A stretch of DNA of 64,000 nt from NCBI GenBank assembly GCA_024231905.1, contig JAAEQC010000092.1, positions 88,726-152,725 on the forward strand, read 5' to 3'. Below, piece by piece: positions 5,187 through 31,935 of this stretch (position 1 is its first letter; each line of letters begins with the position of its first letter). Both the position numbers and the translations under genes were made by a program. The notes under the pieces are model-generated. The model was given only the letters and a program-made list of their open reading frames with translations, was not told where the DNA came from and made no database searches. Source of the stretch: a bacterium. Its GTDB lineage: Bacteria; Krumholzibacteriota; Krumholzibacteriia; LZORAL124-64-63.

Positions 5187-6260
5187 TCACCGCCGCGCGC
5201 GGACGAACATGACCAGGCAGATGAGGGCGTAAACGGCGTTTCCGGACCAGCCTGCGGCCAGGGGCGGCACCGTGCCGCTGTGGCCCAGGGATTTGCCGAA
5301 GTTCATGAACAGGTAATACCCGAAGCTCACGGCCAGGGTGAGGCCGAATCCCGAGGCGATGGTCGTCTTGCGGGGCCCGGAGGCCAGGACCACGCCCATG
5401 AAGACGACGATGAAGTTGACCACGGGAAAGGCCAGGTTCCAGTGGATGTCCACCAGGGCGCCGGTGGGATCGCCGCCGCTCTGCCGGATCAACGAGGCGT
5501 GTTTCAGCAACTGGCGGATGCTCATGTCCTCCTGGCGGATCCGGTCCCGGTAGAGGCTCTTGGGATCCACCGTGAGGTCCCGCGCCGTGAGGCGGTCGAA
5601 GGGTGTGACTACCTCCTGGTCACCGGTGAAGACCCGGCGTGTGCCGTCCACCAGGGTCCAGTGGCGTCCGTCCCATTCGGCCCGGACAGCGTCGATGCGC
5701 TCGGTGACCACGGCACCGTCATGGGCGATGACCCGCAGGCCGGTCACGAGCCCGGTGTTGGGATCGAAGCGGCGGACGAAGTAGAGACGGCCGTCGGGCC
5801 CGGTCAACGCGATGCGCTGGGTGGGACGGATGCGGTCGGGGTTGCCGTGGATTTCCACTTCCCACACCCGGTGCCGCTGCAGGTTGGCTTCGGGCAGCAC
5901 GTACTCCCGCCAGGCCAGGGACAGGATCATCGTCAGGGCGGCCAGCACCAGCAGGGGGCCCGTGATCCGCATGAGGGACCAGCCGGCGGCGAAGAGAGCG
6001 GTCAATTCCAGGTAGCGCGCCATGGTGCCGACGGTGAAGAGCGTGGCCATGAGCATGGCGATGGGCAGCACGATGTCCACGATCCAGGCGGCCTTGTACA
6101 GGTAGTAGCGGCCCACCTGGGAGATGGTGGCCTCGTTGTCCACCAGGCTGCCCACGTGCTCCAGCAGGTCCATGAGCGTAAACAGCACCAGGGCCCCGGC
6201 CATGGTGTAACCCAGGTTGCGCAGGAAGGTCGCCAGGATATGCCGGTGGAGGATGCGCAT
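5187..6260 (-). CDS. lptG: LPS export ABC permease, LptF/LptG (YjgP/YjgQ) family, second gene of pair
   Basis: ATG 6260 (MRILHRHILATFLRNLG...). Hydrophobic N- and C-terminal segments flank a soluble middle domain. The start shares 1 nt with the upstream stop (TGATG). Confidence 0.65.
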   Translation of the reverse strand: MRILHRHILATFLRNLGYTMAGALVLFTLMDLLEHVGSLVDNEATISQVGRYYLYKAAWIVDIVLPIAMLMATLFTVGTMARYLELTALFAAGWSLMRITGPLLVLAALTMILSLAWREYVLPEANLQRHRVWEVEIHGNPDRIRPTQRIALTGPDGRLYFVRRFDPNTGLVTGLRVIAHDGAVVTERIDAVRAEWDGRHWTLVDGTRRVFTGDQEVVTPFDRLTARDLTVDPKSLYRDRIRQEDMSIRQLLKHASLIRQSGGDPTGALVDIHWNLAFPVVNFIVVFMGVVLASGPRKTTIASGFGLTLAVSFGYYLFMNFGKSLGHSGTVPPLAAGWSGNAVYALICLVMFVRARR

Positions 6261-7690
6261 CAGGCGGCCGCCCCGTCCGGGTCCGCGGATTCTCCTGCCG
6301 GGGGCGGGACGGCGCCGGGCTTGAGAGTGATGCTCAGCAGCGTGGATTCCCGCACGGTCTTCAGGAATACGGGGATCCCCACCGCCGTCAGCACGATGTT
6401 GGCCGACCACATGGCCAGCATGGGGTTCAACAGGCCGCGGTCGGCGAACTTCTCGCCCCCCACCAGGAACAGGTAGTAGACGGCGAAGACGGCGATGGCC
6501 AGGCTCACGCTCACGCCCTTGCCGCTGCGCGAGGTCGTCACCGCCATGGGCACTCCCAGCAGGGCGAAGACCACGCAGGCAAAGGGGATGGCGAACTTCT
6601 TGTGGAACTCGACCATGTACTTGTTCCGGCGCACCTCATAGCTGGCGGCGATCTTCCCCTGGTATTCGGACTGTTCGACCGTGCGCTCCACCTTCAGGCG
6701 CGTGGCCCGGAAGCGGGGTTCCACCACGCTGCGCCGCTGCGGGGTGCCGGCCGGGGGCACGGCCCGGGTGCCGAGGACGTCCCCGCGCCGGTCGGGATCC
6801 AGCAGCTGCCAGTGCCAGCTCAGCAGGTTGTGGGCCTGGCTGGCCACGTGCTTCCGCGATTCCAGTTGCTTGCCGCGCTCCTCGGCGGCGGCCGCCCACA
6901 GGGACGTCAGGTTCATCTCCCGATCGCCGCGGGCCTTGCGCCCCGACTCCCGGAAGTCCCGCTCCACGTTGTTCACGTACACGTTCTGCTGCTTGAAACG
7001 GATGACTTGGTACTTGTCCGGCGCCTCCTTGTCAGGGCGCTCGTGGACCTCGCCGTCGTGCAACTCGATGAGCATGGAGTCGGTCTCGTGGTCGGGAATG
7101 ATGCGGCCCCAGGTGGCGACGGTCAGGCGCGGCGCCACGTCGTTGGGCTTCTCGCGCTCGATGATCTGCACGTCCTCGATGCGCCCGGTGAGATCGTCCT
7201 TGGCCGAGACCCGGATGGTCATGCGGTCGTTCAGTTCATTGAACCGGCGCGGCTGGATCTCGAGCATGGGCTTCTTGCGATTGATGTCGTAGACCAGGTT
7301 GGCCAGGGTGTGGTTGGACTCGGGAAAGACCCAGTGGTTGTAGGCTGTCAGGCCGATGGCCACCACCGTGGCCGCGCCGAGCAGCGGGCGCAGGATCGAC
7401 CACAGGCTGATGCCGCTGGCCTTGAAGGCCGTAATTTCATGATCGGCAGCCAGTTGCCCGACGGCCATCAGTATGGCCACCAGCACCGCCATGGGCACGG
7501 AAAGTGCAAATGTGTGCCCCAGGCTGAGGCCCAGGACCTTGGTGGCCAGCAGGAAGGGAACACCTTTGCTGACAAAGAGATCGACGTACTTGTAGAGGAT
7601 CTCTATCATCAGCAGGAAGGTGATGACGAACAGCCCGAAGAAGAACGGGCCGACCGTCGAGCGTAGCAAGTATCTGTAGATCAGGTACAT
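6260..7690 (-). CDS. lptF: LPS export ABC permease, LptF/LptG (YjgP/YjgQ) family, first gene of pair, with long soluble insert
   Basis: ATG 7690 (MYLIYRYLLRSTVGPFFFGLFVITFLL...). 476 aa. The C-terminal TM block FAIPFACVVFALLGVPMAV is typical of the family. Confidence 0.65.
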   Translation of the reverse strand: MYLIYRYLLRSTVGPFFFGLFVITFLLMIEILYKYVDLFVSKGVPFLLATKVLGLSLGHTFALSVPMAVLVAILMAVGQLAADHEITAFKASGISLWSILRPLLGAATVVAIGLTAYNHWVFPESNHTLANLVYDINRKKPMLEIQPRRFNELNDRMTIRVSAKDDLTGRIEDVQIIEREKPNDVAPRLTVATWGRIIPDHETDSMLIELHDGEVHERPDKEAPDKYQVIRFKQQNVYVNNVERDFRESGRKARGDREMNLTSLWAAAAEERGKQLESRKHVASQAHNLLSWHWQLLDPDRRGDVLGTRAVPPAGTPQRRSVVEPRFRATRLKVERTVEQSEYQGKIAASYEVRRNKYMVEFHKKFAIPFACVVFALLGVPMAVTTSRSGKGVSVSLAIAVFAVYYLFLVGGEKFADRGLLNPMLAMWSANIVLTAVGIPVFLKTVRESTLLSITLKPGAVPPPAGESADPDGAAA

Positions 7691-7955
7691 AGCTCCATGT
7701 TTCCGTTGCCTGCGGCCCGGATACAATCCAACCTGGACAAGGTTCCCGCCCCTCCGGGAGGCCGGAGATTCAGCGGGCGCCGGACTCGGACCGGCGGTCA
7801 TCGCCCCACCGGACCGCGCCCGGATGACTCGCCGGGCGAGGTCGGGTACCGGTAGCGGCTTGGCCGGTCCCGGGGCCAGCTTGACCATTTTCGTGGACGA
7901 TCCCCGTCCCGGCCAGGAAAAAAGCCGGCGGCGTACCCCAGAAGGAGCATCGAGG

Positions 7956-10900
7956 TTGAGCAGAGGCCGTCCGGAACATGGCTCCGCCGGGAACCGGGTT
8001 TCCCGTAATCGCCCTTGTGGCGGCGGCGGCCTCCTGCTCCTGACCCTCCTGCTGCCGTTGCTGTTGACCGCCGCTCCGGTCGCCGCGGACCCCGTCTACC
8101 AGGGCCCGATCCTCTACGGTTTCGATCCGGTGATCCGCACCACCCGCGACCCGCGCCTGCTGGGCGTGGAGCGCCAGATCATGCGGCAGCGCTTGGAGGC
8201 CGCCGGCGTGCGGCCCACCGAAGTGGGACGCGACCGCCCGGGCCTGACCCATACCATGCGCCGGCTGTGGCTCGAACGGGCCCGCGTGGACCTGGAGCGC
8301 CTGGAACGTCTGGTGGAGTTCGACGGCCGGCGGGGCACCTACGTGGAGATCGAATACCACCGGTACCTGATCCTGTTCCCGCCCCGGGAAACCCTGCCGG
8401 GGGGCTTCGTCTACTACCCACCCCGGCGGTTAGACAACCCGGACGTGACGATCTTCGTGGACGAACTGGGGGCGGGCATCGCCCGGCGGCACGCGGTGGC
8501 CGGCCGTGAGCACTGGACCACCTCCCTGGACCTGGCCGGCGGCGGCAAACGGGCCCGGGACGCAGGCGGCCTCATCAACCTCACGATCCCCATCAAGCTG
8601 CCACGCACCCTCGAGCGCATCATCGGCAAGGGCGAGAAGACGAGCATTCGCATCAGCGGCCGCGAGCGTATCGCCATCACCGGCGAAAGCACCGTCACCA
8701 AGCCCTTCCTGGGGAACGAACGCATCCAGAGCCAGTCCCTGTTCCCGTCCCTGGACATGGAGCAGGAACTGCAGGTCAACCTCTCGGGCACCATCGGCGA
8801 GAAGATCATCCTGGAGGTGGACCACAACAGCGCCGCCATCGGTCCGGACGCCACCAAGATCAAGCTGATGTACCGGGGCGACGAGGACGACATCATCCAG
8901 ACCATCGAGACCGGCGACGTGGGCCTGACCCTGCCCGGCGGCGGTCTCATGAACTACAGTTCCAGCAAGACCGGACTGTTCGGCATCAAGGTCAAAGGCC
9001 AGGTGGGCCCGGCCGACTTCACCGTGCTGGCCACCAAGCAGAAGGCCGAGAGCTCGAGCCAGAATTTCAACGCCAAGGGCGGGCAGCTTACCTCCCACGA
9101 GATCCTGTCCCACAACTACTTCCGGAACCGCTTCTTCCGCCTGACGAGTACCGAAGAGGCGAACCGCATCTCCATGGCCGCCATCGATCCGGCGACGATT
9201 TTCGTCTACAGGCTAATCGGCGGCGGGGAGGTCGTCGGCGACGAGGTCCGACAGCTAGCCGTCTACCCGGACTCCACGGGATCGTTCTACACCAACGATC
9301 TGACAGTGACCCCGGCATTCCGGGCCGACCGCTGGGCTCCGGTGCCCATCAATACGGACCCGGCGAGCCCCGGCTATTCGCTCCTGGTGGACAAGGACAA
9401 CTTCCTGTGGGGGGTGGATCTCGGTTCTGACCAGGGGGACGACACGGTGTTGGGTGTCACCTACGCACTGAGAGATGGCACGCGGTTCGGCGACTATCCG
9501 GGGGATCCGGCGCCCGGCACCGTTTTTCAGGACGGCGCACCGGTGGAGGGGGAATGGTGGCGGCTGAAGCTGCTCAAGGCGCCTGCCTCGGACGACAATC
9601 GATTCGCCCATGCCCTGATGATCCGGCAGATCTATTCGTTGGGCGGCGCCAACATCGATCCGGGCAGTTTCTCGCTCCGCATCGAAAATACGGATCTTCG
9701 GGACGATACACCCCAGTACGATGAGAACGGTGTCCCCTACCTGCAGATCTTCGGTCTGGACAACGGCGACGACTACGGACTGGGATCCCGGGACGAGGAG
9801 CCGGACCTGACGCGGGACACCCTGTTCGATCTCGACAAGGGTCTGCTCAAGTTCCCCGAGGACTTCGCCCAACCCTTCGCTGCCGATTCGACCACCTACA
9901 AGAACAATGCCTCGGGTACGGCATTCGCTTGGGACGATACGTCCTATCTGGCCACGAACCTCGTTCCCGATCTGTACTCACTTGATGCCCAGGTTTCGTT
10001 GTTGCCCCAGTACGGCAAGTTCCGTTTCGTGGCCGAACACGCCTCGGCCAGCAACACCCTCTCCCTGGGCTCGAGCAACATCGAGGAGAACTCGGAGGTG
10101 GTGAAGGTCGACGGCAAGACCCTCAAGCGGGGCGAGGACTACGACATCGACTACGTCTTCGGCGAGATCGTTCTCAAGGAGGGGAACTTCACACTCACGG
10201 CCGAGAGCCAGATATCGGTGACCTACGGTTACTCGCCCTTCATCGGCGGAGGCTCCACGAGCCTCTTGGGCGGCAACCTCGGTTATCAGATCGGTCGCGA
10301 CAGCCGCTTGTCCACCACCTGGTTGTACAAGTCCGAGGTCATCGTCGGGGACAAGGCCAAGCTGGGGGAAGAGCCGTCCAAGAATCTGGTGGGCACGGTG
10401 AACCTGCAACACACGATGCGGCCCAAGTTCCTGACCAGCGTCGCCAACCTGCTCAGCCGGCACGACACCGAGAAGGAGAGCTCGGTGCAGCTCCAGGGGG
10501 AGGTCGCCGTGAGCATCCCCAACCCCAACACCAAGGGCCAGGTCTACCTGGAGGACTTCGAAGGCATCGATGCCTCCAACGTGATCTCCCTGGTGCGGAC
10601 CGCCTGGACGCTGCCGGCCTTCCCTATCCAGGATGCCGACGGTTTCGTCGGCGCCTTGCCGCAATTCGGATCCACCGAGCGCGTCGGCACCACCCGCTGG
10701 TACCGCCCCAACGATCGTGTGCCGCGCTGGTATCTCAACCCGTCCTTGGAGAGCCAGGAACTGGACGAAGCCCAGTCGGTCATGGAGCTCTACCTGAAGG
10801 ACGAGGCCGGAGATGTCTGGAACACCGGCAGTTGGGGCGGGATCTCCCGCGGTGTCAGCGCTTCCGGCCTCGACCTGACCCAGGCCCAGTTCATCGAAAT

Positions 10901-13900
10901 CTGGCTCAACGACGGCCAGACGGATCGTCTTGGGCGCACGGGGCGGCTGCACATCGATTTCGGTGAGATCAGCGAGGACGGCTACTGGCCCGACGGTGAA
11001 GTCGGGAGCCCGCAGAACGAGGACGCCAACAACAACGGCAGTTTCGAGCAGAAGGATGATTACAACGAGGATACCGGCTTGGTCGGTGACGCCGAACCGG
11101 AGTGGTCCGCCGAATTCGATGAAGGCTCGAAGACCTTCAGCCGCATCAACAGCACGAGGAACAACAGGACCTGGGATCGGGAGGATGGCAACAAGAACGG
11201 GTTCTTCGATACGAAGAACGAGTATTTTACGGCCGTCATCGATCTTGGGGAAACTCCAACCGAGGTGGATGTCGTCTATGATTACACCGCCGCGAACGGC
11301 TTTTCGGGTGGAACCGTCGAACGTGCCGATGAACTCCGGAACAAAGGCAAGGCCTGGCGAAAGTACCGCATCCCGCTGAGCGATATCGTTCCCGTCGCTG
11401 CCTCGGGCGATCCGGATCTGCTCCGTATCAAGCATGTGCGCCTGTGGTTCGAGGACGAGGAACGGTCGAACGATGTCGTCCGCCTGCAGCTCTCCGAGTT
11501 GCGTTTCCTCGGCTCCCGCTGGGAGCGCAACGGCATCCGTCGCGTGGAGGACGAGCGCATCCTCGAACCGGCGGACCTGCTGCCGGATGAGGGTTTTTTC
11601 CTGGGGGAGATGAACAACAAGGAGAACCCGGAATACGTGCCGCCCTACCAGCCCAAGCGCGAACTGAACATCACCGAGAAGGAGCAGGCACTCCTCATCG
11701 ACTACACGGACCTGGCCCAGGGTCACCAGCTCGGGACCTCGCGCCAGGTCTCGGTCCAGGGTGACGACTACACGGGCTACGAGGAGTTGAGCTGGTTCTG
11801 GAACAACACCGACTTCCGGACCGCCGACCTGGATCTCTTCTTCCGCGTGGGCGCCGACACCCTCAACTACTACGAGGTCGCCTACAGTTTCGCCGACGAC
11901 AATCCCAAGACCGGCTGGAAGCAGATCACCCTGGACCTGGTCGAACTGTCCCAGGTGAAGAACGGCGAACTGGGTGAGGACGGCGCCCGCCACGCCCTGG
12001 TCGGCGATAGCCGGACCGACGACGTGTACCGCGTGCGCGTGGTCGGCCGCCCCGACCTGCGGCGCATCAAGCGCTACTACTTCATCATCGCCAACAACGA
12101 TCTCGCCCAGCCTGCCAGCGGCCGCCTCTATCTGAACGACGTGCGCCTGCTGGGGGTGAAGCGGGAGAAGGGCATGGCCGAACGCGGCGGCGTGCGCTTG
12201 AACATGGCCGATGTCTACAAGCTCGACTTCGACTGGTCCCATACGGACCAGGAGTATCACGGCCTGAACGCCGACAAGGGCAGCGGCATCGACCAGCGGC
12301 AGTGGAACCTGTCCATGAACTTCAAGGTCGAGGATTTCGTGCCGCTCCTGGGCTTCCGTCTGCCGGTAGGCCTGAGCCGCCGCCAGACCATCAAGCGACC
12401 CAAGTACGAACTGAACAGCGACATCGAGATCATCGACGACGACGTGCGCAACGAGCTGTCGACCATCGAACGCTCCGAGTCCTTCTCGGTGCGCCTCAGC
12501 CACCCGGGATCCAAGAACCCGATCCTCCGCTACGCCGTGGATCCCTGGTCCTTCAACCTCAACGGGTCGCAGAGCAATCACTCGGATCCCCTGGTGCGCA
12601 ATTTCAACAAGAGCTTACAGGGGGGCGTGAAGTACGACCTGCGGATCCAGGGTCGTTACCGCCTGAGCGCCTATCCGGTGCTGAAACACATCCCCCTGCT
12701 CAGGGCCGTGGACGTGGTGCCGGATCACTTCAGTTTCAATGCGGGCTTCACGAGCACCTACCGTTCCGGCGTGAACATCCTCACCGACGGCACCGAGTCG
12801 CCACGGGCGCCGTCCCGCACCCGGCCGCTGCAGATGGATGCGAGCCTGGACTACTCGCCCCTGAACGTACTCGACATCAACGTTTCGGGCCGTTCGGAGC
12901 GCGACCTGCTGCGGGAATCGGAACAGTTCGGCGTGAACATCGGCCAGGAGAACCGACGCACCTACGGGACACGCCTGACCATCAAACCACCCCTGGCCAA
13001 GGAACTGCCGCACAACGTGTTCTTCAAACCGGTGCGGACCGCGGCCCGGGCCCTGACGGCCCTGCGCCCGAGCGTCCAGTTCAAGGGAGGGTTCTCGGAT
13101 AACCATGGCCCCGAGGTTCGCAAGGGGGATGACCCACCGGGTACGAAGACCGTGGGCAACAACGGCCTGTGGGAGCTCCGCTTCAGCCTGCCCATAGGGG
13201 ACACGACCAAGAAGCTCTTCCCCAAGAAGCGCTACTCGGCCCAGCAGCAGGAGCAGATCCTCGCCCAGGAGGAGGCGCGCCTCAACCAGCTCAACCGCCA
13301 GGGGCTGCAGGATTCCACCGTGGTGCTCACGCCCGCGGAAACCCGGGGACTGACCCCCGACGAGATCAACGAGCTGCGCCAGGAACGTCTTCTGGAGGCG
13401 GTCGAGCGCCGGGAGCAGGCGGAGGCCGACCAGCGGAGCGGCCGGTCCCTGTCCAGCGGCGAACCGGGCTTCCCCAATCCCTTGGACATCGTGCTGGAGT
13501 CCATGCGCAACCTGACTCCGGTGAAGTTCACCTTCAGCAACAAACGTTCGTCGCGCTTCACGCGCTACACCAGCGACGTGTCCTTCTGGTACCGGACCGG
13601 ACTGGTCAAGACCCTGAACCGGGCGGACAGCCTCTACATCACCCATTCGCTCAACAGCACGAGCAGCGTGAACGTGACCACGTCGACGAAGATGCACCGC
13701 AACGTGTCGGTGGACCTGAAATTCAACCAGTCCACCGGGGAGACCGACGGCACCAACTCCACCACCACCGACTACAAGCAGGACTGGCCCGACGTCCGCA
13801 TCAACCTGTCGGGCCTCGAGCGATGGCCGGTGCTGGGGGCCAAGGAGAACCGGGACGACAGCTGGTTCAAAACCTCGTCCCTGACTTTCAGCTATCGCAA

Positions 13901-14399
13901 GAGCAAATACGCCAACGGCAGCACGGCGACCTTCTACACGCCCACGACCCAGACCAGCCTGATGCCCCGCTGGCAGGCCACCCTGCAGAACGGCATGACC
14001 GTTTCCACTTCGGTGACCATGACCGGTGACCGCCGGGTGTCTGTGGGCTCGGTGACCGAGAACAACGGCCTGAGCGTCAGTGTCCAGCTCCGCCACCAAT
14101 TCCGGGCCCAGGGCCTCCTGGCGCGCATGGGACTCTACCGCCCCGGCAACAACCCCACCGTCACCATGGACGTGGACATGTCCTATGGCCGGGATCGCAA
14201 CACGCGGACCGACCAGACCGGTGCGGAGCCCTCGGTCTCGGGCATCAACCGCATGAGCGTCAATCCGCGCTTCAGCTATAATATCACCCGGAACCTCACG
14301 GGCTCCATGCGGCTGATCTACAGCCGGAACAACAACATCCAGAGCGGCCAGACGACCACGACTCTCGGCATGGGACTGGAGGCCACCTTTGTGTTCTAG
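7956..14399 (+). CDS. giant SprA-like outer-membrane protein (candidate type IX secretion translocon)
   Basis: Uninterrupted ORF. The likely start is TTG 7956 with AAGGAG 8 nt upstream (the ORF-track start 7824 has no RBS and precedes the signal peptide by about 70 aa). Signal peptide LLLLTLLLPLLLTAAPVAA|DP. 2147 aa. The C-terminus alternates like beta-strands and ends LGMGLEATFVF (terminal Phe, as in OM barrels). Confidence 0.6.
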   Translation: MSRGRPEHGSAGNRVSRNRPCGGGGLLLLTLLLPLLLTAAPVAADPVYQGPILYGFDPVIRTTRDPRLLGVERQIMRQRLEAAGVRPTEVGRDRPGLTHTMRRLWLERARVDLERLERLVEFDGRRGTYVEIEYHRYLILFPPRETLPGGFVYYPPRRLDNPDVTIFVDELGAGIARRHAVAGREHWTTSLDLAGGGKRARDAGGLINLTIPIKLPRTLERIIGKGEKTSIRISGRERIAITGESTVTKPFLGNERIQSQSLFPSLDMEQELQVNLSGTIGEKIILEVDHNSAAIGPDATKIKLMYRGDEDDIIQTIETGDVGLTLPGGGLMNYSSSKTGLFGIKVKGQVGPADFTVLATKQKAESSSQNFNAKGGQLTSHEILSHNYFRNRFFRLTSTEEANRISMAAIDPATIFVYRLIGGGEVVGDEVRQLAVYPDSTGSFYTNDLTVTPAFRADRWAPVPINTDPASPGYSLLVDKDNFLWGVDLGSDQGDDTVLGVTYALRDGTRFGDYPGDPAPGTVFQDGAPVEGEWWRLKLLKAPASDDNRFAHALMIRQIYSLGGANIDPGSFSLRIENTDLRDDTPQYDENGVPYLQIFGLDNGDDYGLGSRDEEPDLTRDTLFDLDKGLLKFPEDFAQPFAADSTTYKNNASGTAFAWDDTSYLATNLVPDLYSLDAQVSLLPQYGKFRFVAEHASASNTLSLGSSNIEENSEVVKVDGKTLKRGEDYDIDYVFGEIVLKEGNFTLTAESQISVTYGYSPFIGGGSTSLLGGNLGYQIGRDSRLSTTWLYKSEVIVGDKAKLGEEPSKNLVGTVNLQHTMRPKFLTSVANLLSRHDTEKESSVQLQGEVAVSIPNPNTKGQVYLEDFEGIDASNVISLVRTAWTLPAFPIQDADGFVGALPQFGSTERVGTTRWYRPNDRVPRWYLNPSLESQELDEAQSVMELYLKDEAGDVWNTGSWGGISRGVSASGLDLTQAQFIEIWLNDGQTDRLGRTGRLHIDFGEISEDGYWPDGEVGSPQNEDANNNGSFEQKDDYNEDTGLVGDAEPEWSAEFDEGSKTFSRINSTRNNRTWDREDGNKNGFFDTKNEYFTAVIDLGETPTEVDVVYDYTAANGFSGGTVERADELRNKGKAWRKYRIPLSDIVPVAASGDPDLLRIKHVRLWFEDEERSNDVVRLQLSELRFLGSRWERNGIRRVEDERILEPADLLPDEGFFLGEMNNKENPEYVPPYQPKRELNITEKEQALLIDYTDLAQGHQLGTSRQVSVQGDDYTGYEELSWFWNNTDFRTADLDLFFRVGADTLNYYEVAYSFADDNPKTGWKQITLDLVELSQVKNGELGEDGARHALVGDSRTDDVYRVRVVGRPDLRRIKRYYFIIANNDLAQPASGRLYLNDVRLLGVKREKGMAERGGVRLNMADVYKLDFDWSHTDQEYHGLNADKGSGIDQRQWNLSMNFKVEDFVPLLGFRLPVGLSRRQTIKRPKYELNSDIEIIDDDVRNELSTIERSESFSVRLSHPGSKNPILRYAVDPWSFNLNGSQSNHSDPLVRNFNKSLQGGVKYDLRIQGRYRLSAYPVLKHIPLLRAVDVVPDHFSFNAGFTSTYRSGVNILTDGTESPRAPSRTRPLQMDASLDYSPLNVLDINVSGRSERDLLRESEQFGVNIGQENRRTYGTRLTIKPPLAKELPHNVFFKPVRTAARALTALRPSVQFKGGFSDNHGPEVRKGDDPPGTKTVGNNGLWELRFSLPIGDTTKKLFPKKRYSAQQQEQILAQEEARLNQLNRQGLQDSTVVLTPAETRGLTPDEINELRQERLLEAVERREQAEADQRSGRSLSSGEPGFPNPLDIVLESMRNLTPVKFTFSNKRSSRFTRYTSDVSFWYRTGLVKTLNRADSLYITHSLNSTSSVNVTTSTKMHRNVSVDLKFNQSTGETDGTNSTTTDYKQDWPDVRINLSGLERWPVLGAKENRDDSWFKTSSLTFSYRKSKYANGSTATFYTPTTQTSLMPRWQATLQNGMTVSTSVTMTGDRRVSVGSVTENNGLSVSVQLRHQFRAQGLLARMGLYRPGNNPTVTMDVDMSYGRDRNTRTDQTGAEPSVSGINRMSVNPRFSYNITRNLTGSMRLIYSRNNNIQSGQTTTTLGMGLEATFVF

Positions 14400-15324: not shown

Positions 15325-15416
15325 AGCGCATTCCGCGCTAAATTTCCGCTGATCCGGGCCGATGAATGCCGCAGACGTATTCGTTCGTATCCCCGGAAGC
15401 TGAAAAGGAGCGGGGC

Positions 15417-16085
15417 ATGATCACCACCTGCACCGTTTGCCAGGCCCGTTACCGACTCGAAGCCGCCAAGGTCCCGCCGCGCGTCCTGCGCGTCCGTTGC
15501 CCGGACTGCGGGGGCGTCTTCGTCCTCGACGGCACGGCGCCCGTCGCGCCGGAGGAGACCCCCGTGGCCGGTCTGGAAACCGGTTACAGCGCGCCCGCCC
15601 CGGCCGCCCAGGTCGAACAGCCGGCGCCGCCGGTGAGTGCCTACGACGACGTGCCGGTGGCAACTCCGGCGACCGTCGAGCCCCCTGCGCCCGAGCCCGT
15701 CCCGGAGGACGAGCCCGCTGTCGCCGCCACCCCGCCTGCGTCCGCCCCGGTGGAAAGCCCGGTCTCCGAGGCCCCGGCTGCTGTGGTCGATACCGCCCCC
15801 GCCGCGGTGGCCACCGCCGAAGCCGAACCGGCCGCCCCGACGCGCCGCCGCCGCTCCAAGGAGGAGATGCTGGCCCGGGCTCTGGTGTCGGACATCCTGG
15901 TCTACAACCGCGAATTGCGGGATACGGCCCTGGCCGAGGGGAACCTCCTGGAGGCCCTGGGCGCCGAGATCAAGAAGTCCTGGGAATTGTACAAGGAGAA
16001 GGTTACGCCCGAAGTGGCCAACAGCACCAACCACTTCCGCGAGGCCTTGAACGAGATCCTGGCCGAAGGCGAGAAGGTCTTCTAG
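15417..16085 (+). CDS. MJ0042-type zinc-ribbon protein with Pro/Ala-rich linker and conserved-looking C-terminal helical domain
   Basis: ATG 15417 with AAGGAG upstream. CTVC...CPDC zinc ribbon in the first 35 aa. A low-complexity P/A/E linker of about 120 aa. C-terminal EEMLARALVSDILVYNRELRD... Confidence 0.6.
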   Translation: MITTCTVCQARYRLEAAKVPPRVLRVRCPDCGGVFVLDGTAPVAPEETPVAGLETGYSAPAPAAQVEQPAPPVSAYDDVPVATPATVEPPAPEPVPEDEPAVAATPPASAPVESPVSEAPAAVVDTAPAAVATAEAEPAAPTRRRRSKEEMLARALVSDILVYNRELRDTALAEGNLLEALGAEIKKSWELYKEKVTPEVANSTNHFREALNEILAEGEKVF

Positions 16086-16175: not shown

Positions 16176-16619
16176 TCAGTCGGACCACTTGCCCTTGCTG
16201 ATCTCGCCCAGGACATCGTCGATCTGCTGCCGCACCCTCTCGTTGTGATCGGGCTCGAAGAGGGCCTGCTTCACGCGCCCCTGATCGTCCTTCTTCACGT
16301 AGCGCAGGGACTGCAGATCGGTCATGGACATGAGAATGTCCTTGCTGACCCGGACCTCGATGGGGTTGCCGTCCTGGTTCTCGGCCGGGTTGTGGTAGGG
16401 GTGCATGCCGTTGCCCCAGCCGTGGACGACCATGGAGCACAGGAGGGCCCGGAAGGTGTTCTGCCCCTGGACCGTCTCCAGGTCGAAATTGCCGCCGACC
16501 TTGCCGGTGACGCTGTCGATGACGGCCGCCAGCTTGGCGGACATCTCGTCGGTCACCTCGATCTGCAGCAGGCGCGAGAACATGGTGCGGAGGATGCGTT
16601 CGGTGTTGGAGGTCGTCAT
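16176..16619 (-). CDS. hypothetical protein (147 aa), no family recognised
   Basis: ATG 16619 (MTTSNTERILRTMFSRLLQIEV...). Balanced, globular-looking composition. Divergent from the MglA-like gene. Confidence 0.5.
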   Translation of the reverse strand: MTTSNTERILRTMFSRLLQIEVTDEMSAKLAAVIDSVTGKVGGNFDLETVQGQNTFRALLCSMVVHGWGNGMHPYHNPAENQDGNPIEVRVSKDILMSMTDLQSLRYVKKDDQGRVKQALFEPDHNERVRQQIDDVLGEISKGKWSD

Positions 16620-16849
16620 GGATCCGCTCCCGGCGGTGTCGTGGCCATGGATAGCGCCGGACGGCCTGCGCGGACCGTCGGCGGGAACATCTTCGTGAGC
16701 ACGTCCCTTATGCAAGATGCTTGCCGTTTCCACGCTTCCGTGGGAATACCGGTCCAGTTTCGCAGAGGTGGCACGCGCTTTGCAGAAATGTTCGCACAAG
16801 GCGCGGAAACGCGCAATGCGCAGTCTGGAACGGGAATCGAGGGACCACG

Positions 16850-17713
16850 GTGGCGGAAATCGCGACGACAGCGGTCAGGACTTGCCGCCTGCTCTACTAC
16901 GGAGCCACGGGCGTGGGCAAGCGTGAGAACCTCAGCCTGATCCATCGGACCATCCCGCCCGAGTCCCAGCTCAGCCTGGCCGTGGAGGATCCGGAGCGGC
17001 AGATCGCCTTCCGGTTCAACCAGCCCGAGGGCGACTCCTGGCAGGTGCTCGTGCAGGCGATCGACGCCGGGCGCGAGCGTCCGCGAGCCGCGGGCATGGT
17101 CGAAAGGCCTCCATTCGACGCCGTGGTGTTCGCCGTGGATTCCGGTGCGGCCCACCTGGACCAGAGCCTGTCGGCCTTCGAGGCCCTCAAGAACTACCTG
17201 GACAGCTGGGGCCGGGACCTCTTGGAAGTGCCCGTCGTCCTCCAGTACAACCGTCGCGCGGCGTCCGATGCCCTGCCGGTCGACCGTCTCGAGAGCCTGC
17301 TCAACCCCTGGGGACTCCTGTCCTTCCCGGCCGATTCGGCCAAGGGGGAGGGCGTACGCGAGACCCTCAAGTCCATCCTGGGATTGGCCATCAATCATCT
17401 CAAGGCCCAGCCCGAGCCCGAACCCGAACCGGCCCCTGCGGCCAAGGAAGCTTCGCCGACGCCACCGCAGCCCGCGGCGGCCCCGCCGGAGCCCGTGGTC
17501 GAGCCCGTGGAGAACATGGGTCTGGACTACGGCCCGCCGGTTCCGGGCAACGAAGTGACCGCTGCCGCGGCCGAACGTGGCGACGCTATTCTCGACGAGT
17601 TGCGGCCGCCGGTGGTCATTCCGGTGAAGATCCCGCGTCGGCTCCTGGAAGGGGACCGGCCCGTACGGATCCTGCTCGAGGCCCGCATCGTCGACGACGA
17701 CGAAGCCTACTGA
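16850..17713 (+). CDS. MglA-like small Ras-superfamily GTPase homologue with degenerate G motifs and C-terminal extension
   Basis: GTG 16850 places the P-loop at the same distance from the N-terminus as in MglA. RLLYYGATGVGKRENL, FDAVVFAVDS, VPVVLQYNRRA and GEGVRETLKSILGLAI are collinear with remembered MglA blocks. A PEPEPEPAP linker is followed by a tail of about 70 aa. Confidence 0.65.
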   Translation: MAEIATTAVRTCRLLYYGATGVGKRENLSLIHRTIPPESQLSLAVEDPERQIAFRFNQPEGDSWQVLVQAIDAGRERPRAAGMVERPPFDAVVFAVDSGAAHLDQSLSAFEALKNYLDSWGRDLLEVPVVLQYNRRAASDALPVDRLESLLNPWGLLSFPADSAKGEGVRETLKSILGLAINHLKAQPEPEPEPAPAAKEASPTPPQPAAAPPEPVVEPVENMGLDYGPPVPGNEVTAAAAERGDAILDELRPPVVIPVKIPRRLLEGDRPVRILLEARIVDDDEAY

Positions 17714-17807: not shown

Positions 17808-18674
17808 ATGGAAACAGGACACCTTGCCGAGAGCAGCGAAAACCCTCATGGCTCCGCTTGGGCGGAGCTTTTTGACAGAGGGCGCCGTGCCGAACTGGAC
17901 GGTCGCCTGGACGAGGCACGGACGTCTTACGCGTCGGCCCTGGAGTCCGGTGGCGAGCGGGCCGATTGGCGGTACCGCCTGGGCTGCGTGTGCCTGAAGC
18001 AGGACGATCCCGCGGCGGCAGTGCCCTGCTTCGAGGCGGCGGCGGGCGACGAGGCTACCGCGGTCAAGGCCCTGACCAATCTCGGCGTGTGTTACGACCG
18101 TCTGGGACGCCGCACGGATGCCGTTCGAGCCTACCGGCTGGCCATCCGTCGCGGAGGGTCTGCCGTAGCCCACCACAATCTGGGCTCGATCCATGCGGAG
18201 GAGGGGCGCCCGGGAGAGGCGATTCGGTCCTTCGAGGCGGCCATTGCCCTGGAACCGGATGCGGAGGCGTTCCTCAACCTGGGTCTCGTCCACCTGGCCC
18301 GGGAGGATTTCGTCCTGGCCCGGGAAGCCTTCGACCGCAGCGTGGACCAGCAACCGCGCTTCGCCCTGGGGCACTACCACGCCGCCCTGTGCCACATGAA
18401 AACCGGGTGCTACGCCGACGCTTGCACGCGCTTCGACCGGGCCTGGGAGCTGGACCCGCGCCTGGCTCGCACGCCGTACCACCTTGGTGTGTGCTGCCAT
18501 AAGCTGCAGCGCTACGAGGAGGCGCGAGCCCAATTCGAACAGGCGCTGGAGGCCTTCCCCGAGGACGGCCGGATCCATTACCAACTCGCCCTGACCTGCG
18601 ACGCTCTGGGTCTGCACCAGGAAGCCCGTACCCACTACGGACGCGCCCGGGCCCACGACGCCGCCGGCCGCTGA
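17808..18674 (+). CDS. tetratricopeptide-repeat protein (cytoplasmic)
   Basis: Repeated approximately 34-aa TPR units (e.g. ALTNLGVCYDRLGRRTDAVRAYRLAI, AHHNLGSIHAEEGRPGEAIRSFEAAIALEP). Confidence 0.75.
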   Translation: METGHLAESSENPHGSAWAELFDRGRRAELDGRLDEARTSYASALESGGERADWRYRLGCVCLKQDDPAAAVPCFEAAAGDEATAVKALTNLGVCYDRLGRRTDAVRAYRLAIRRGGSAVAHHNLGSIHAEEGRPGEAIRSFEAAIALEPDAEAFLNLGLVHLAREDFVLAREAFDRSVDQQPRFALGHYHAALCHMKTGCYADACTRFDRAWELDPRLARTPYHLGVCCHKLQRYEEARAQFEQALEAFPEDGRIHYQLALTCDALGLHQEARTHYGRARAHDAAGR

Positions 18675-19515: not shown

Positions 19516-19893
19516 TCAGCGGGGGGCGCCGGAAGGCACGAGCCTGGTCAGCGTTTCCTGGACCCGCTCGTGGTCGAAGGGCTTGATGATGAAGTCGCGG
19601 GCGCCGGCCTTGATGGCCGCCAGTACCTGGTCCTTCTGGCCGAGGGCCGAGATCATGACCACCAGGGCGTCCGCGTCCTCGTGGAGGATGGCCTCCAGGG
19701 CCTCGGTCCCGTCCAGGTTGGGCATGGTGATGTCCATGAGGACCACTTCCGGCCGGGTCTGACGCCAGGCCGCCAGAGCCTCGAAACCGTCCACCGCTTC
19801 GGCCACCACGCGCCAGCCCATGTCCTCGACGATCTCTTTGAGCATCACCCGCATGAAGTCGGCGTCATCGACGATGAGGACGGTATGGGCCAA
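19516..19893 (-). CDS. single-domain response regulator (CheY-like)
   Basis: TTG 19893 with GGAGG 6 nt upstream gives (M)AHTVLIVDDADFMR. Phospho-acceptor context VVLMDITMPNLDG, then ISALG and KPF. Confidence 0.85.
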   Translation of the reverse strand: MAHTVLIVDDADFMRVMLKEIVEDMGWRVVAEAVDGFEALAAWRQTRPEVVLMDITMPNLDGTEALEAILHEDADALVVMISALGQKDQVLAAIKAGARDFIIKPFDHERVQETLTRLVPSGAPR

Positions 19894-20006
19894 GGTGCAC
19901 CTCCGTGCGGATCGTAGGGGTGTCGGGCCACCGGCGGCGCGTTCGGGGGCGCCGGGGGACGGTTCTGCCTCGTACACCTAATTGATCGACATGGGGGGCA
20001 TGGACT

Positions 20007-29281: not shown

Positions 29282-31858
29282 TCAGTCGCGGGGCAACCCG
29301 CGATGATCGACACGATCCCTCCCTGCTTGAGCAAGAAGAGGACCGTTGGTCGTTTTTTCTTTCAACTCTTTGATATGTAACAACATGGCGGTCATGTCGT
29401 CACCCTCGCCACCCTGCCCGAAGTGTCTGACCTCGGTAAAAATCGCGTCGAGGAGATCCTGTGGAGCGACATCTGCGCGGCTGGACACGGCGGCCATGAG
29501 GCGTTCCTCGTCGTAGAATTCACCCGCGTCGTTGCGCTGATCGGCCAAACCGTCCGTGCGCAGGAAGAGGCGGTCGCCCCCCTGGAGGGTGAGCGCTCCT
29601 TCCCGGTACGCATGATCCGCCACGGCTCCCAGGACGGGCCCCCCTTTTCGCAGGATGTCGTACCAATCCTGGCCCTGCCGGAAGAGGACCGGTGGATCCA
29701 TGCCCGCGTTGCAGTAGCGCAAGAGGCCCGATTCAGGTTCCCAGATGGCGCAGAAGAAGCAAACGAAACGACCCGGCGCGATGTGGGCGCCCAGGGCGGC
29801 GTTGAGGCGGTTCGCCACCGCCGCCGGGCGCAGGCGCGCCTCGGCCTCCCGGCGGAAGCCGGTGCAGAGGGAGGTCATGAGCAGGGCCGCGGGGATGCCC
29901 TTGCCCGCCACGTCCGCGATGGCCAGGACCAGGCTGCCGTCCTCGCGCAGGAAGAAGTCGAAGAAGTCGCCGCCCACGCGCCGGCTGGGCTCGTGCCGGC
30001 CGGCCACCACGAAGCGGGGCGTTTCCAGCGGACCCACGGGCAACAGGCTCGACTGGATACCCCGGGCCACCTCGATCTCCGTCTCGAGCTTCTGGCGCTG
30101 CAAGCTGTCGTGGTAGAAGTGCCGGCTCTCCAGGACCGAAGCGGCCTGGACCGCCAGAACCCTCAGGTTGGCCAGGTCCTCCTGGGTGTAGAGGATGTCG
30201 CCCCGCTTGGGACCGAAGGCCAGGAAACCCACCAGCCGGTTGCCGCCCACCAAGGGGACGGCCAGAAGGGCGCCGGAGCGGGTCAACGTGGCCAGGGAAT
30301 CGGCGTCACTGCCGGTGCCCAGGAGCAGGTCTTCCAATTCCTCGGTGAAGACGGGTCGGCGCAGGCGGTGGAGCAGGCGGGCCAGGGCGCTGGCCGGAGA
30401 CAGGGCGTCCTGGCCGCCGTTCGTGCCCAGGACCTGCAGCGGTTGGTCCGGCCCCTCGCTCAGGTAGAGCGCGAGTCGTTGCGGGCGGTAGAGCTCCGTG
30501 AGGCTGTCCAGCAATTCGGTGGCCATGTCCTCGGTGGCAACCAGGCTGCTGAGCCGGTCGGCGAGGGCGACCATGGCTCGACGGTGAACCTGCCGTTCCG
30601 GGTAGAAGGCGCGGTCGATCCAGCCCTGGACCGCCTGGCGCAGGGGCTGGATGACCAGTCCGCCACCGGCGGCGATGGCCAGGAGCACGGGGAAGGTCGA
30701 GACGTTGAAGGTCCGCGCCAGGGCTGTGCCCAGGACGACCACCCCGGCGAAGTAGCCAGCCAGCAGCAGGAGCGTCAGGGCGCCGTAGACCAGGCCGGTA
30801 CGGACGATGAACGTGCGGTCGATGGCGCCGTAGCGCAGGATGGCCAGGGCGAAGCTGCTGGGCACGAGGATCACCGATAGGCTCAGATACTGCACGGGAC
30901 CGGCGATGCGCACGGGGGTGGCCTCGCCCACCAGCACCACGCCCAGGAAGGGGACCAGGCCCAGCAGGAGCCCGCCGAACACCACCAGCAGCTTGGTACG
31001 CTGGATCGGGCGATCCTTGCGCACGGCGTGACGGGCGAAGATGACGAGCCCGGTGAGCACGAAGGTGAGCATGTAGAAGAGGATCACCGTCCCCAGGATC
31101 ATCTCCACCGGGCTGCCGGCCGGGGCCGGGTGCCAGATCTCGTTGGCGGCGGAGGCCAGCAAGAGTACGGCCGCGGGCAGGAAGAGCAGCGGCGCGCGCG
31201 GCCCCGCCCAGCGCGGTCCCAGGCGGCGGCCCCCGCCCGGGAACCCCAGGAAGAAGCGCAGGAAGAAGGCAGGCAGCAGCAGTTGCAGCAGGAGACGCAG
31301 GTACTCCTTGGCATACATGTAGACCGTGTCGTCCAGGTCGGGCACGTCCACCAGGAAGAACGCGAAGATGAAGCAGAGAGAGAAGAAGGTGCGCGTCACC
31401 GGATCGTCGCGCCTCCACAGCACCCACCAGCCGATGGCCAGGAAGCTCAAGCCCACGGTCCACAGGCAGTAGTGGCGGATCATGGTGGGCTGGTCCGGGG
31501 AACCCTGCGGCACGGAGATTTCGACCACCTCCACCGCGCGGGTCAATACCAGACCCAGGGCCACGGCTTGCCGGTCATTGGCCATGGCCGAATAGTATTC
31601 CCGCATGTCGGCCACGGGGCGGTCGCCGACGGTGGCGATGCGATCACCCACCTGCATGCCGGCCTGATCGGCAGGGCCGCCCGGTCGAACCGTCACGACC
31701 TCGAGCCGATGAACGGCAAAGCCGCGGTCCTGGCGTTCGGCGATGTGGATGGCCACGGGCAGGGAGAGGGCTACGAGCGCCGGGGCCAGGAGAAACAGGC
31801 CCAGGCGGCGCAGGAGCGCGCGATGGGGGCGGGCGGTCTGGTGAAGCGATCGGTTCAT
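29282..31858 (-). CDS. membrane-bound PP2C/SpoIIE-family phosphatase with periplasmic PDZ, multi-TM block and GAF domain
   Basis: PDZ-like VVTVRPGGPADQAGMQVGDRIATVGDRPV after the first TM. About 8 hydrophobic segments. GAF-like LLAVPLVGGNRLVGFLAFGPK. SpoIIE motifs RVGGDFFDF, IADVAGKGIPAALLM and LRTDGL. Confidence 0.8.
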   Translation of the reverse strand: MNRSLHQTARPHRALLRRLGLFLLAPALVALSLPVAIHIAERQDRGFAVHRLEVVTVRPGGPADQAGMQVGDRIATVGDRPVADMREYYSAMANDRQAVALGLVLTRAVEVVEISVPQGSPDQPTMIRHYCLWTVGLSFLAIGWWVLWRRDDPVTRTFFSLCFIFAFFLVDVPDLDDTVYMYAKEYLRLLLQLLLPAFFLRFFLGFPGGGRRLGPRWAGPRAPLLFLPAAVLLLASAANEIWHPAPAGSPVEMILGTVILFYMLTFVLTGLVIFARHAVRKDRPIQRTKLLVVFGGLLLGLVPFLGVVLVGEATPVRIAGPVQYLSLSVILVPSSFALAILRYGAIDRTFIVRTGLVYGALTLLLLAGYFAGVVVLGTALARTFNVSTFPVLLAIAAGGGLVIQPLRQAVQGWIDRAFYPERQVHRRAMVALADRLSSLVATEDMATELLDSLTELYRPQRLALYLSEGPDQPLQVLGTNGGQDALSPASALARLLHRLRRPVFTEELEDLLLGTGSDADSLATLTRSGALLAVPLVGGNRLVGFLAFGPKRGDILYTQEDLANLRVLAVQAASVLESRHFYHDSLQRQKLETEIEVARGIQSSLLPVGPLETPRFVVAGRHEPSRRVGGDFFDFFLREDGSLVLAIADVAGKGIPAALLMTSLCTGFRREAEARLRPAAVANRLNAALGAHIAPGRFVCFFCAIWEPESGLLRYCNAGMDPPVLFRQGQDWYDILRKGGPVLGAVADHAYREGALTLQGGDRLFLRTDGLADQRNDAGEFYDEERLMAAVSSRADVAPQDLLDAIFTEVRHFGQGGEGDDMTAMLLHIKELKEKTTNGPLLAQAGRDRVDHRGLPRD

Positions 31859-31935
31859 GGGAACCTTTCGACTGGCGAATGCTCCCGGATGCTACCACGG
31901 CCCGGCAGCAGGAGCCACTGCTGACGGGAGAGACG

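Follow-up and report, generated by a model that had tools for sequence, protein, structure and literature searches.

The stretch of DNA analysed here, which we call the window, spans 64,000 nucleotides (positions 88,726 to 152,725 of contig JAAEQC010000092.1, GenBank assembly GCA_024231905.1) from a bacterium of the Krumholzibacteriota. One of its genes codes for a relative of MglA, the model bacterial Ras-like polarity switch, the logic of which combines GTP hydrolysis (with MglB) and nucleotide exchange (with RomR and RomX). We name its product MglAL. Judged from its sequence, MglAL is a real and conserved protein, present phylum-wide, derived from MglA and carrying a rebuilt nucleotide site. 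Its neighbours code for a zinc ribbon (ZnR) protein with a RomX-like domain, a small protein termed p146, a TPR protein and a receiver (REC), as detailed in Table 1. The MglAL reading frame is genuine: GAGGGA is found a few bases 5' of the GTG codon at 16850, and the GC content of third codon positions (GC3) is 0.80 in this frame. Antisense shadow open reading frames (ORFs) are many across the window, one of 260 aa lying opposite MglAL (16616-17398, minus strand). They are typical of DNA of 66-70% GC, and their GC3 shows that they are not genes. No RNA element or tRNA emerged from scans with Rfam and for tRNAs, and a promoter and terminator scan gave a signal at background level.

Table 1. Features of the MglAL gene and of its neighbours (positions in the window; residues in the protein concerned)
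Feature	Positions	Strand	Description
MglA-like gene, MglAL	16850..17713	+	GTG start, 287 aa, stop codon 17711-17713
G domain (residues 10-186)	16877..17407	+	AlphaFold2 (AF2) predicted local distance difference test (pLDDT) 89-98
P-loop GATGVGKR	16901..16924	+	MglA T26 replaced by R; Lys kept
Switch I DPERQIAF	16988..17011	+	MglA T54 replaced by Q; arginine finger R53 kept as R50
Switch II DAGRE	17063..17077	+	MglA Q82 replaced by R; new invariant D72 and E76; G74 kept
G4 remnant NRRA	17249..17260	+	MglA K142 replaced by R, D144 by A
Pro/Ala/Glu-rich linker (PEPEPEPAP)	17408..17515	+	length and sequence variable, many gaps, unconserved
C-terminal module, ~65 aa	17516..17710	+	LGLDYGPPxPG, helix, RPPVVIPVxIPRRLLxG..PVRILLEVxIxDD
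Zinc ribbon-RomX-like gene	15366..16085	+	two genes upstream of MglAL; MJ0042-type zinc ribbon, Pro/Ala-rich linker, RomX-like three-helix domain (residues 162-234)
p146	16176..16619	-	147 aa; between the zinc ribbon-RomX gene and MglAL; divergent from MglAL, 230-bp gap
Cytoplasmic TPR protein	17808..18674	+	288 aa; 95 bp downstream of MglAL; Pfam TPR_2, E 3e-41
CheY-type receiver, single-domain	19516..19977	-	conserved in the locus; Pfam Response_reg, E 1.1e-27; PDB CheY, E 2.3e-32

The MglAL protein has no family match in Pfam, NCBIfam or PADLOC. Compared by phmmer with all PDB sequences, its only significant matches are MglA chains, from Myxococcus xanthus and Thermus thermophilus, and HMMER places residues 11-185 collinear with them (E 3.2e-13 to 3.8e-13). 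The register of this alignment is fixed, because the flanking blocks YYG, VVFVADS/VVFAVDS and QYN anchor it, and the motif calls discussed below are therefore not due to an alignment shift. An AF2 model built from a 120-sequence alignment points in the same direction. When it is searched against the PDB with Foldseek the top 14 matches are MglA, the best being chain 6izw_A of the MglA-GTPgammaS-MglB complex (E 2.8e-15, template modelling (TM) score 0.79 on the target), so that retention of the G-domain fold, a first mark of pseudo-GTPases, is displayed by the predicted model. Agreement is slightly better with GTP-analogue-bound MglA (TM 0.77-0.79) than with most GDP forms (0.70-0.76), which may be taken as a weak hint, from a model, of an "on-like" shape. 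A preliminary description of this DNA, made by eye, had proposed that the protein is collinear with MglA and derived from it. The shared YYG, VVF(V/A)xDS and QYN blocks, the PDB sequence matches and the Foldseek result all support this, while membership of a different P-loop family was rejected, the best matches in sequence and in fold being all MglA.

It is at the nucleotide site that MglAL parts from its ancestor. Group-1 MglA proteins are characterized by a G1 motif GxxxxGK[T/S], an arginine finger beside a conserved Thr, a G3 motif TVPGQ with the catalytic Gln, a G4 motif [N/T]KxD and an mglB gene within four genes (PMC4316618). Conservation in MglAL was measured on an alignment of 120 homologues, those listed among the 288 that a protein search retrieved, together with the loci of GTDB species, and variability was ranked by entropy over the 176 columns of the G domain. 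In the P-loop, GKT has become GKR: the Arg is there throughout, in 120 of 120 homologues and in all members of the family at the loci of the GTDB species, and G18, G23, K24 and R25 are invariant. In switch I, RT has become RQ, with D47, P48, E49, R50, I52 and F54 invariant, R50 being the arginine finger and the adjoining residue, in place of Thr, being Gln in 117 of the 120 (Q51). In switch II, TVPGQ has given way to V-D-A-G-x-E, which the window copy writes I-D-A-G-R-E and of which only the Gly is ancestral. The family signature here is D-x-G-x-E, D72, G74 and E76 being invariant or almost so in the homologues and in the GTDB loci.

Other positions of the site drift freely. Position 75, the equivalent of Ras Q61 and MglA Q82, accommodates R, K, Q, E, T, S, M, H or N (entropy 1.92, variability rank 31 of 176), and position 20, the equivalent of Ras G12 and MglA G21, is T in the window copy and A in most relatives (rank 23), a further change that the preliminary description had overlooked. 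The NKxD motif is degenerate, the family pattern being N-[R/G/N/H/Q..]-R-[D/E/G/A/P/S]. N134 is invariant and R136 is found in 95%, but position 135 (rank 30) is never Lys across the family, and position 137 (rank 37) is D in 59% of the 120, otherwise mainly E or G, the A of the window copy being a rare state.

For the window copy, the motif calls of the preliminary description stand: GATGVGKR with Arg in place of the Mg-binding Ser/Thr, ERQIAF for DRTLFF, AGR with loss of the catalytic Gln, and NRRA. Loss of the Asp in the latter is, however, no family trait. The further claim that every G motif is substituted goes too far, since the residues of GxxxxGK, the arginine finger, the Gly of switch II and the Asn of G4 do not vary among the 120 relatives. 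Because MglAL falls outside the G1, G3 and G4 definitions of Group 1 yet retains the arginine finger, it is best regarded as derived from MglA and not as a full member of the group. It also displays the second mark of pseudo-GTPases, the absence of Mg2+ and catalytic residues (T26 has become R and T54 has become Q, the G12 equivalent is a residue other than Gly, and the Q82 position is unconstrained). Fixed changes at the Mg2+ site together with drifting catalytic and guanine-reading positions would fit a non-hydrolysing protein: they are the signature expected once selection for hydrolysis and guanine recognition is lost, and the fixation of the remodelled site suggests strong selection for something else at the former phosphate/Mg2+ site. 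That MglAL would be a conventional GTPase, its motifs misaligned by eye, or else a decaying paralogue devoid of function, is extremely improbable. We found no support for it, the motifs being in register between conserved flanks with HMMER as with Foldseek, and the substitutions being invariant in 120 homologues and 57 species, at 55-81% identity and conserved length, and we take it as refuted.

Beyond the G domain, the PEPEPEPAP linker and the extra tail reported previously are both present, the tail being of about 65 aa rather than 70, and conserved. The linker has a pLDDT mostly below 70. In the C-terminal module, P229, P258, P262, L265 and E277 are invariant among the 120 homologues; the AF2 model gives it a helix (238-249), then a segment with a pLDDT of 86-88 and little regular secondary structure (261-280). 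The module has no Pfam or PDB sequence match, and the Foldseek matches cover the G domain only.

The listed homologues, of about 280 aa, are unnamed or "hypothetical" and, where labelled, come from metagenome-assembled genomes (MAGs) of Candidatus Krumholzibacteria. A scan of GTDB species representatives established which lineages have the degenerate form: it recovered 57 loci, in as many species, essentially all Candidatus Krumholzibacteriota, the ORF being conserved across the whole phylum. In a profile search of 1.84 billion representatives, only 18 proteins were found at E <=1e-30, and these are the MglAL family itself; below this threshold come, with lower scores, canonical MglA proteins of the Group-1 type in very large numbers. 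The nearest of these canonical relatives keep GKT, DRTLFF, TVPGQ and NKRD, and many are "long" forms of 300-900 aa. Long canonical MglA proteins (P0135-P0269) make up a very large class with long Pro-rich C-terminal extensions. One of them, P0135 (locus L062, 2023-11939), is surrounded by three Roadblock genes, PatA_N, a TPR-Roadblock fusion and genes of the pilB/T/C type, which is the classical context of MglA; MglAL has no such context. Our search of the literature on MglA, pseudo-GTPases and Krumholzibacteria found no paper describing the MglAL family.

Like MglAL, two sister forms named P0127 and P0130 carry the C-terminal module, and their P-loop GK[TS] is intact. P0127 reads GKT, EGGERFSF, ADAAAV and NRQD, and has the gene order MglAL-TPR-REC, on the strength of which we judge that it belongs within the diversity of the phylum. 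P0130, on a contig too short to display its context, keeps GKS and NKRD. Neither has the Thr of switch I or the catalytic Gln, and in P0130 the Arg of switch I is missing as well. Loss of the hydrolysis residues is thus common to the wider group, in which they would be dispensable, and it is in the main clade of this group that the P-loop Arg has become fixed. In a divergent lineage, a GKT-type MglAL (P0129, 639 aa; compare L061) reads through into the downstream TPR protein. Whether this is a real fusion or the result of a frameshift or assembly artefact, it confirms the adjacency of MglAL and TPR there. Two other MglA-like lineages with a GKR P-loop, P0196 (199 aa) and P0268 (353 aa), are isolated and stand in different contexts. 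They keep NRRD or NKRD and acquired their Arg independently; P0268 (L065, 6001-7062) lies between an unknown gene of 362 aa and a GAF-GGDEF gene.

The main clues to a pathway come from the RomX-like, TPR and CheY-type neighbours, which the preliminary description did not report. Wherever the locus is of sufficient length, the genes stand in the order ZnR-RomX, p146, MglAL, TPR, REC, and MglAL and the RomX-like domain lie no more than about 0.8 kb apart in all 54 loci. The zinc ribbon of the first gene is recognized by Pfam (Zn_ribbon_4, E 1.1e-11) and by TIGR02098 (E 1.1e-8). Its C-terminal domain matches RomX (PDB 8zna) with E 4.6e-9 over 73 residues. The gene probably starts at M18 (15417), because its orthologues begin at MITTC. 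In M. xanthus, RomX residues R14 and D19 are reported as required for binding of MglA-GTP and for exchange activity (bioRxiv 10.1101/2024.02.20.581209). In the Krumholzibacteriota orthologues, R14 is kept in 53 of 54 and D19 in 54 of 54; the counterpart of R11 is Met. On the other side of the presumed contact, E111 of MglA, part of the modelled RomX interface (bioRxiv 10.1101/2024.02.20.581209), corresponds to the invariant D104 of MglAL. The likeness to the RomX/RomR module of M. xanthus extends to the three-helix domain with its R14 and D19, in an upstream neighbour of the MglA-like gene, and to a nearby receiver gene. There are differences, however: in M. xanthus RomX is made as a separate protein of some 95 aa and binds to the receiver of RomR, whereas here the domain is fused to a zinc ribbon, and the receiver is of the CheY type rather than RomR-like.

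An MJ0042-type zinc ribbon on a flexible linker also recalls GltJ, in which a ZnR-linker-GYF unit is a switch operated by MglA and MglB in M. xanthus (PMC11135422). The match to the GltJ zinc ribbon (7zok) is weak (E 0.015), and the GYF domain and membrane part of GltJ are both absent from the protein discussed here.

Downstream, the TPR gene follows MglAL wherever the locus extends far enough, and the two genes are probably co-transcribed. In most genomes UppP/BacA lies between the TPR gene and the convergent receiver gene. The receiver probably starts at an internal codon, since its ORF has 153 aa when counted from a GTG, as compared to 117-128 aa in its orthologues. We considered it as a RomR-like REC domain and rejected this, its best matches being chemotaxis CheY (E 2.3e-32) and no specific RomR signal being seen. 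At least one Krumholzibacteriota MAG has been reported to carry flagellar and chemotaxis genes (PMC10936416).

The protein p146 is 74-83% identical across the phylum, more conserved than MglAL, and its 454 homologues all belong to the same lineage. It has no match in Pfam, NCBIfam, PADLOC or PDB. Its AF2 model, of low confidence (pLDDT 58), has the order three helices, four strands, one helix, and Foldseek returned nothing below E 0.3, a weak negative for a model of this quality. A role as a hidden MglB, or GTPase-activating protein (GAP), was rejected on the absence of any match in sequence or fold, a rejection that the low pLDDT of the model makes a weak one.

What would complete the Group-1 picture, an mglB gene within four genes, is not seen at MglAL. 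Pfam scans of the window ORFs, which reached to about 56 kb, gave no Roadblock match, and neither did tblastn over the whole 64-kb window with an MglB query sequence, which bears out the earlier statement that no Roadblock/LC7 gene is adjacent. A Roadblock neighbour is likewise absent from the 57 MglAL loci, of up to +/-10 kb, and no canonical mglA or mglB was found elsewhere in the 64-kb window. Such coupling is typical and not universal: mglB lies within four genes of MglA in 390 of 449 MglA family members (PMC4316618).

We put at about an even chance the following interpretation: MglAL would descend from Group-1 MglA, would have lost the function of a switch driven by GTP hydrolysis, and would act as a constitutive adaptor, that is, a pseudo-GTPase, with candidate partners encoded next to it. 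Both Mg2+ ligands are replaced, the P-loop Thr by the invariant Arg and the switch-I Thr by Gln, and switch II has gained two invariant acidic residues, D72 and E76. The equivalents of G12 and Q61, with the K and D of NKxD, have been released from selection, and the former Mg2+/gamma-phosphate site would now be filled by a fixed network of K24, R25, R50, Q51, D47, E49, D72 and E76. Such a charged network, if it forms, would hold the switch regions in a single conformation, hence the constitutive adaptor. Independence from guanine nucleotide is probable on the sequence. The C-terminal module, on its flexible linker, may fold back on the G domain and regulate it, or bind a further partner. The CheY-type receiver close by may supply input. 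The preliminary description had proposed a nucleotide-independent or altered-specificity polarity or scaffolding protein derived from MglA. This is supported in part: the MglA origin, the replaced Mg2+ and catalytic residues, the conservation of the ORF, the extra module and the lack of an MglB neighbour are all borne out, but altered specificity received no positive evidence.

The most plausible partners are, by analogy, the RomX-like domain of the zinc ribbon protein and the downstream TPR protein, a choice based on the precedents of RomX and MglA in M. xanthus, of MglA and Bd2492 in Bdellovibrio, and of MglA and SgmX, a TPR protein that is a known MglA partner in M. xanthus (PMC7519303). 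In Bdellovibrio bacteriovorus, MglA is an orphan, naturally S21, proposed to be GTP-locked, works with the TPR protein Bd2492 and with RomR, and has been read as a one-state, non-oscillating protein (PMC3983030). This orphan, one-state MglA is what MglAL, by analogy, is best described as resembling: neither has an mglB gene, and in both the Gly equivalent to Ras G12 is replaced. MglAL is nevertheless much further altered, since the Bdellovibrio protein keeps all nucleotide and Mg2+ residues and is presumed GTP-bound, whereas in MglAL the two Mg2+ ligands are gone and the residue at the position of the catalytic Gln varies.

Other precedents are instructive. M. xanthus MglA and T. thermophilus MglA, of Group 1 (PMC4316618), remain the best match in sequence and fold, with a collinear G domain, the arginine finger, the YYG-P-loop, VVFVxDS and QYN blocks, the C-terminal helix, and a RomX-type regulator encoded nearby; MglAL differs from them, besides its motifs, by the missing MglB/Roadblock partner gene and by its linker and additional module. 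SofG, an MglA paralogue of M. xanthus, also escapes regulation by MglB, and has both the arginine finger and extra sequence outside the G domain (PMC4316618). As described, it differs in being an active GTPase that needs this arginine for hydrolysis. Eukaryotic pseudo-GTPases such as the psGD of AAGAB, pG1 and pG2 of p190RhoGAP, and CENP-M use the G fold for protein-protein interaction and have motifs incompetent for catalysis (PMC12490416, PMC5593906). They belong to unrelated lineages, however, and their G motifs are mostly erased, whereas in MglAL the phosphate-side residues were remodelled and then frozen; MglAL is, moreover, bacterial, and stands beside a homologue of the exchange factor of its ancestor.

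Several observations weigh against a hydrolysis-dead adaptor with neighbouring partners. The invariance of GxxxxGK, G74 and N134 is equally compatible with retained binding of phosphate or nucleotide, and about 60% of orthologues still have the Asp of G4. Hydrolysis assisted by a GAP, as in Rap, is not prevented when only the catalytic Gln is lost. A neighbour that keeps the exchange residues of RomX makes most sense with a nucleotide to exchange. As for the context, a more distant lineage (L069, 6001-9064, ERZ23498658 scaffold_179) has ZnR-RomX, p146, TPR, BacA, REC and sigma-70 genes in the same order, without any MglA-like gene between p146 and TPR, its ZnR-RomX protein having 137 aa and a short linker, and stand-alone RomX-like genes in genomes labelled Gemmatimonadales have no MglA neighbour.

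The first of these observations feed the main rival explanation, that MglAL still binds nucleotide, in an Mg2+-independent way, the invariant P-loop Arg replacing the metal at the beta and gamma phosphates. The protein would be either permanently loaded, as a pseudo-GTPase of the class ii/iii type, or cycling, by way of nucleotide exchange promoted by the RomX-like domain encoded nearby, together with an unknown GAP, possibly p146. We think this rather unlikely, and keep it alive because the P-loop is invariant and the neighbour keeps the RomX exchange residues R14 and D19. An abandoned pocket would be expected to decay, and GxxxxGK, G74, N134 and R50 have not changed; an Asp occupies the G4 position in more than half of the relatives; and the sister forms keep GK[TS], with P0130 having NKRD as well. 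Yet no member has kept either Mg2+ ligand, the Asp and Lys that specify guanine are among the most variable columns, and the equivalent of Q61 is unconstrained. We know of no Ras-like GTPase with Arg at this position of the P-loop, although no exhaustive search for one was made, and this also counts against Mg2+-independent binding.

The observations on context bear on the partner part of the adaptor interpretation. MglAL might have been inserted into, or lie by coincidence within, a vertically inherited housekeeping block (SprA, M28 peptidase, BacA, sigma-70) and be independent of the RomX-like, TPR and CheY-type proteins, which would leave the biochemical part untouched. The L069 locus has the entire block but no MglAL, housekeeping genes make up the surroundings (LptF/G, SprA, UppP, a sigma-70-type factor, valS, groES/EL), and BacA comes and goes within the block. 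From L069 and the stand-alone RomX-like genes it follows that the block is in part inherited synteny and that MglAL is dispensable to it, and the notion of an obligate operon-level module is weakened. Pure coincidence is nonetheless somewhat unlikely in our opinion: RomX is a specific regulator of MglA, its proximity in all 54 loci is hardly a matter of chance, and MglAL and TPR are adjacent in the divergent P0127/P0129 lineage too.

Whatever the outcome, a whole phylum keeps an MglA derivative with a rebuilt Mg2+ site beside an exchange-factor homologue and a TPR protein, which makes it a natural experiment. If MglAL is a pseudo-GTPase, it would add a bacterial case, and a well-conserved one, to a class of proteins described mostly in eukaryotes, and one would have to ask what is left for a RomX-type domain to do once there is no nucleotide cycle. 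Should it instead bind nucleotide in the absence of Mg2+, the chemistry would be unusual for a Ras-like protein. At its boldest, and this we offer as a speculation with a distinctly low chance of being right, MglAL would be the first small G protein of bacteria to use a side chain, that of the invariant P-loop Arg, in place of Mg2+, acting either as a metal-independent nucleotide switch served by an exchange factor of the RomX type or as a self-liganded, permanently "on" mimic of MglA, and organizing, with the zinc ribbon-RomX protein, the TPR protein, p146 and CheY, a phylum-specific polarity or envelope module in bacteria devoid of MglB.

A few features of the wider surroundings complete the picture. 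The 2191-aa product of the gene at 7824-14399 (plus strand) had no Pfam match in our scan and is recognized as SprA/Sov, the type IX secretion system (T9SS) translocon (TIGR04189, E 8e-141). This gene is directly upstream of that of an M28 peptidase in most, not all, Krumholzibacteriota loci, and the pair precedes the block in part of the phylum only. Two LptF/LptG permease genes (5187-8095) lie on the strand opposite to SprA. Further downstream, at 29282-31891 on the minus strand, a large signalling protein combines a PDZ domain, a seven-transmembrane region, a GAF domain and a SpoIIE-type phosphatase domain.

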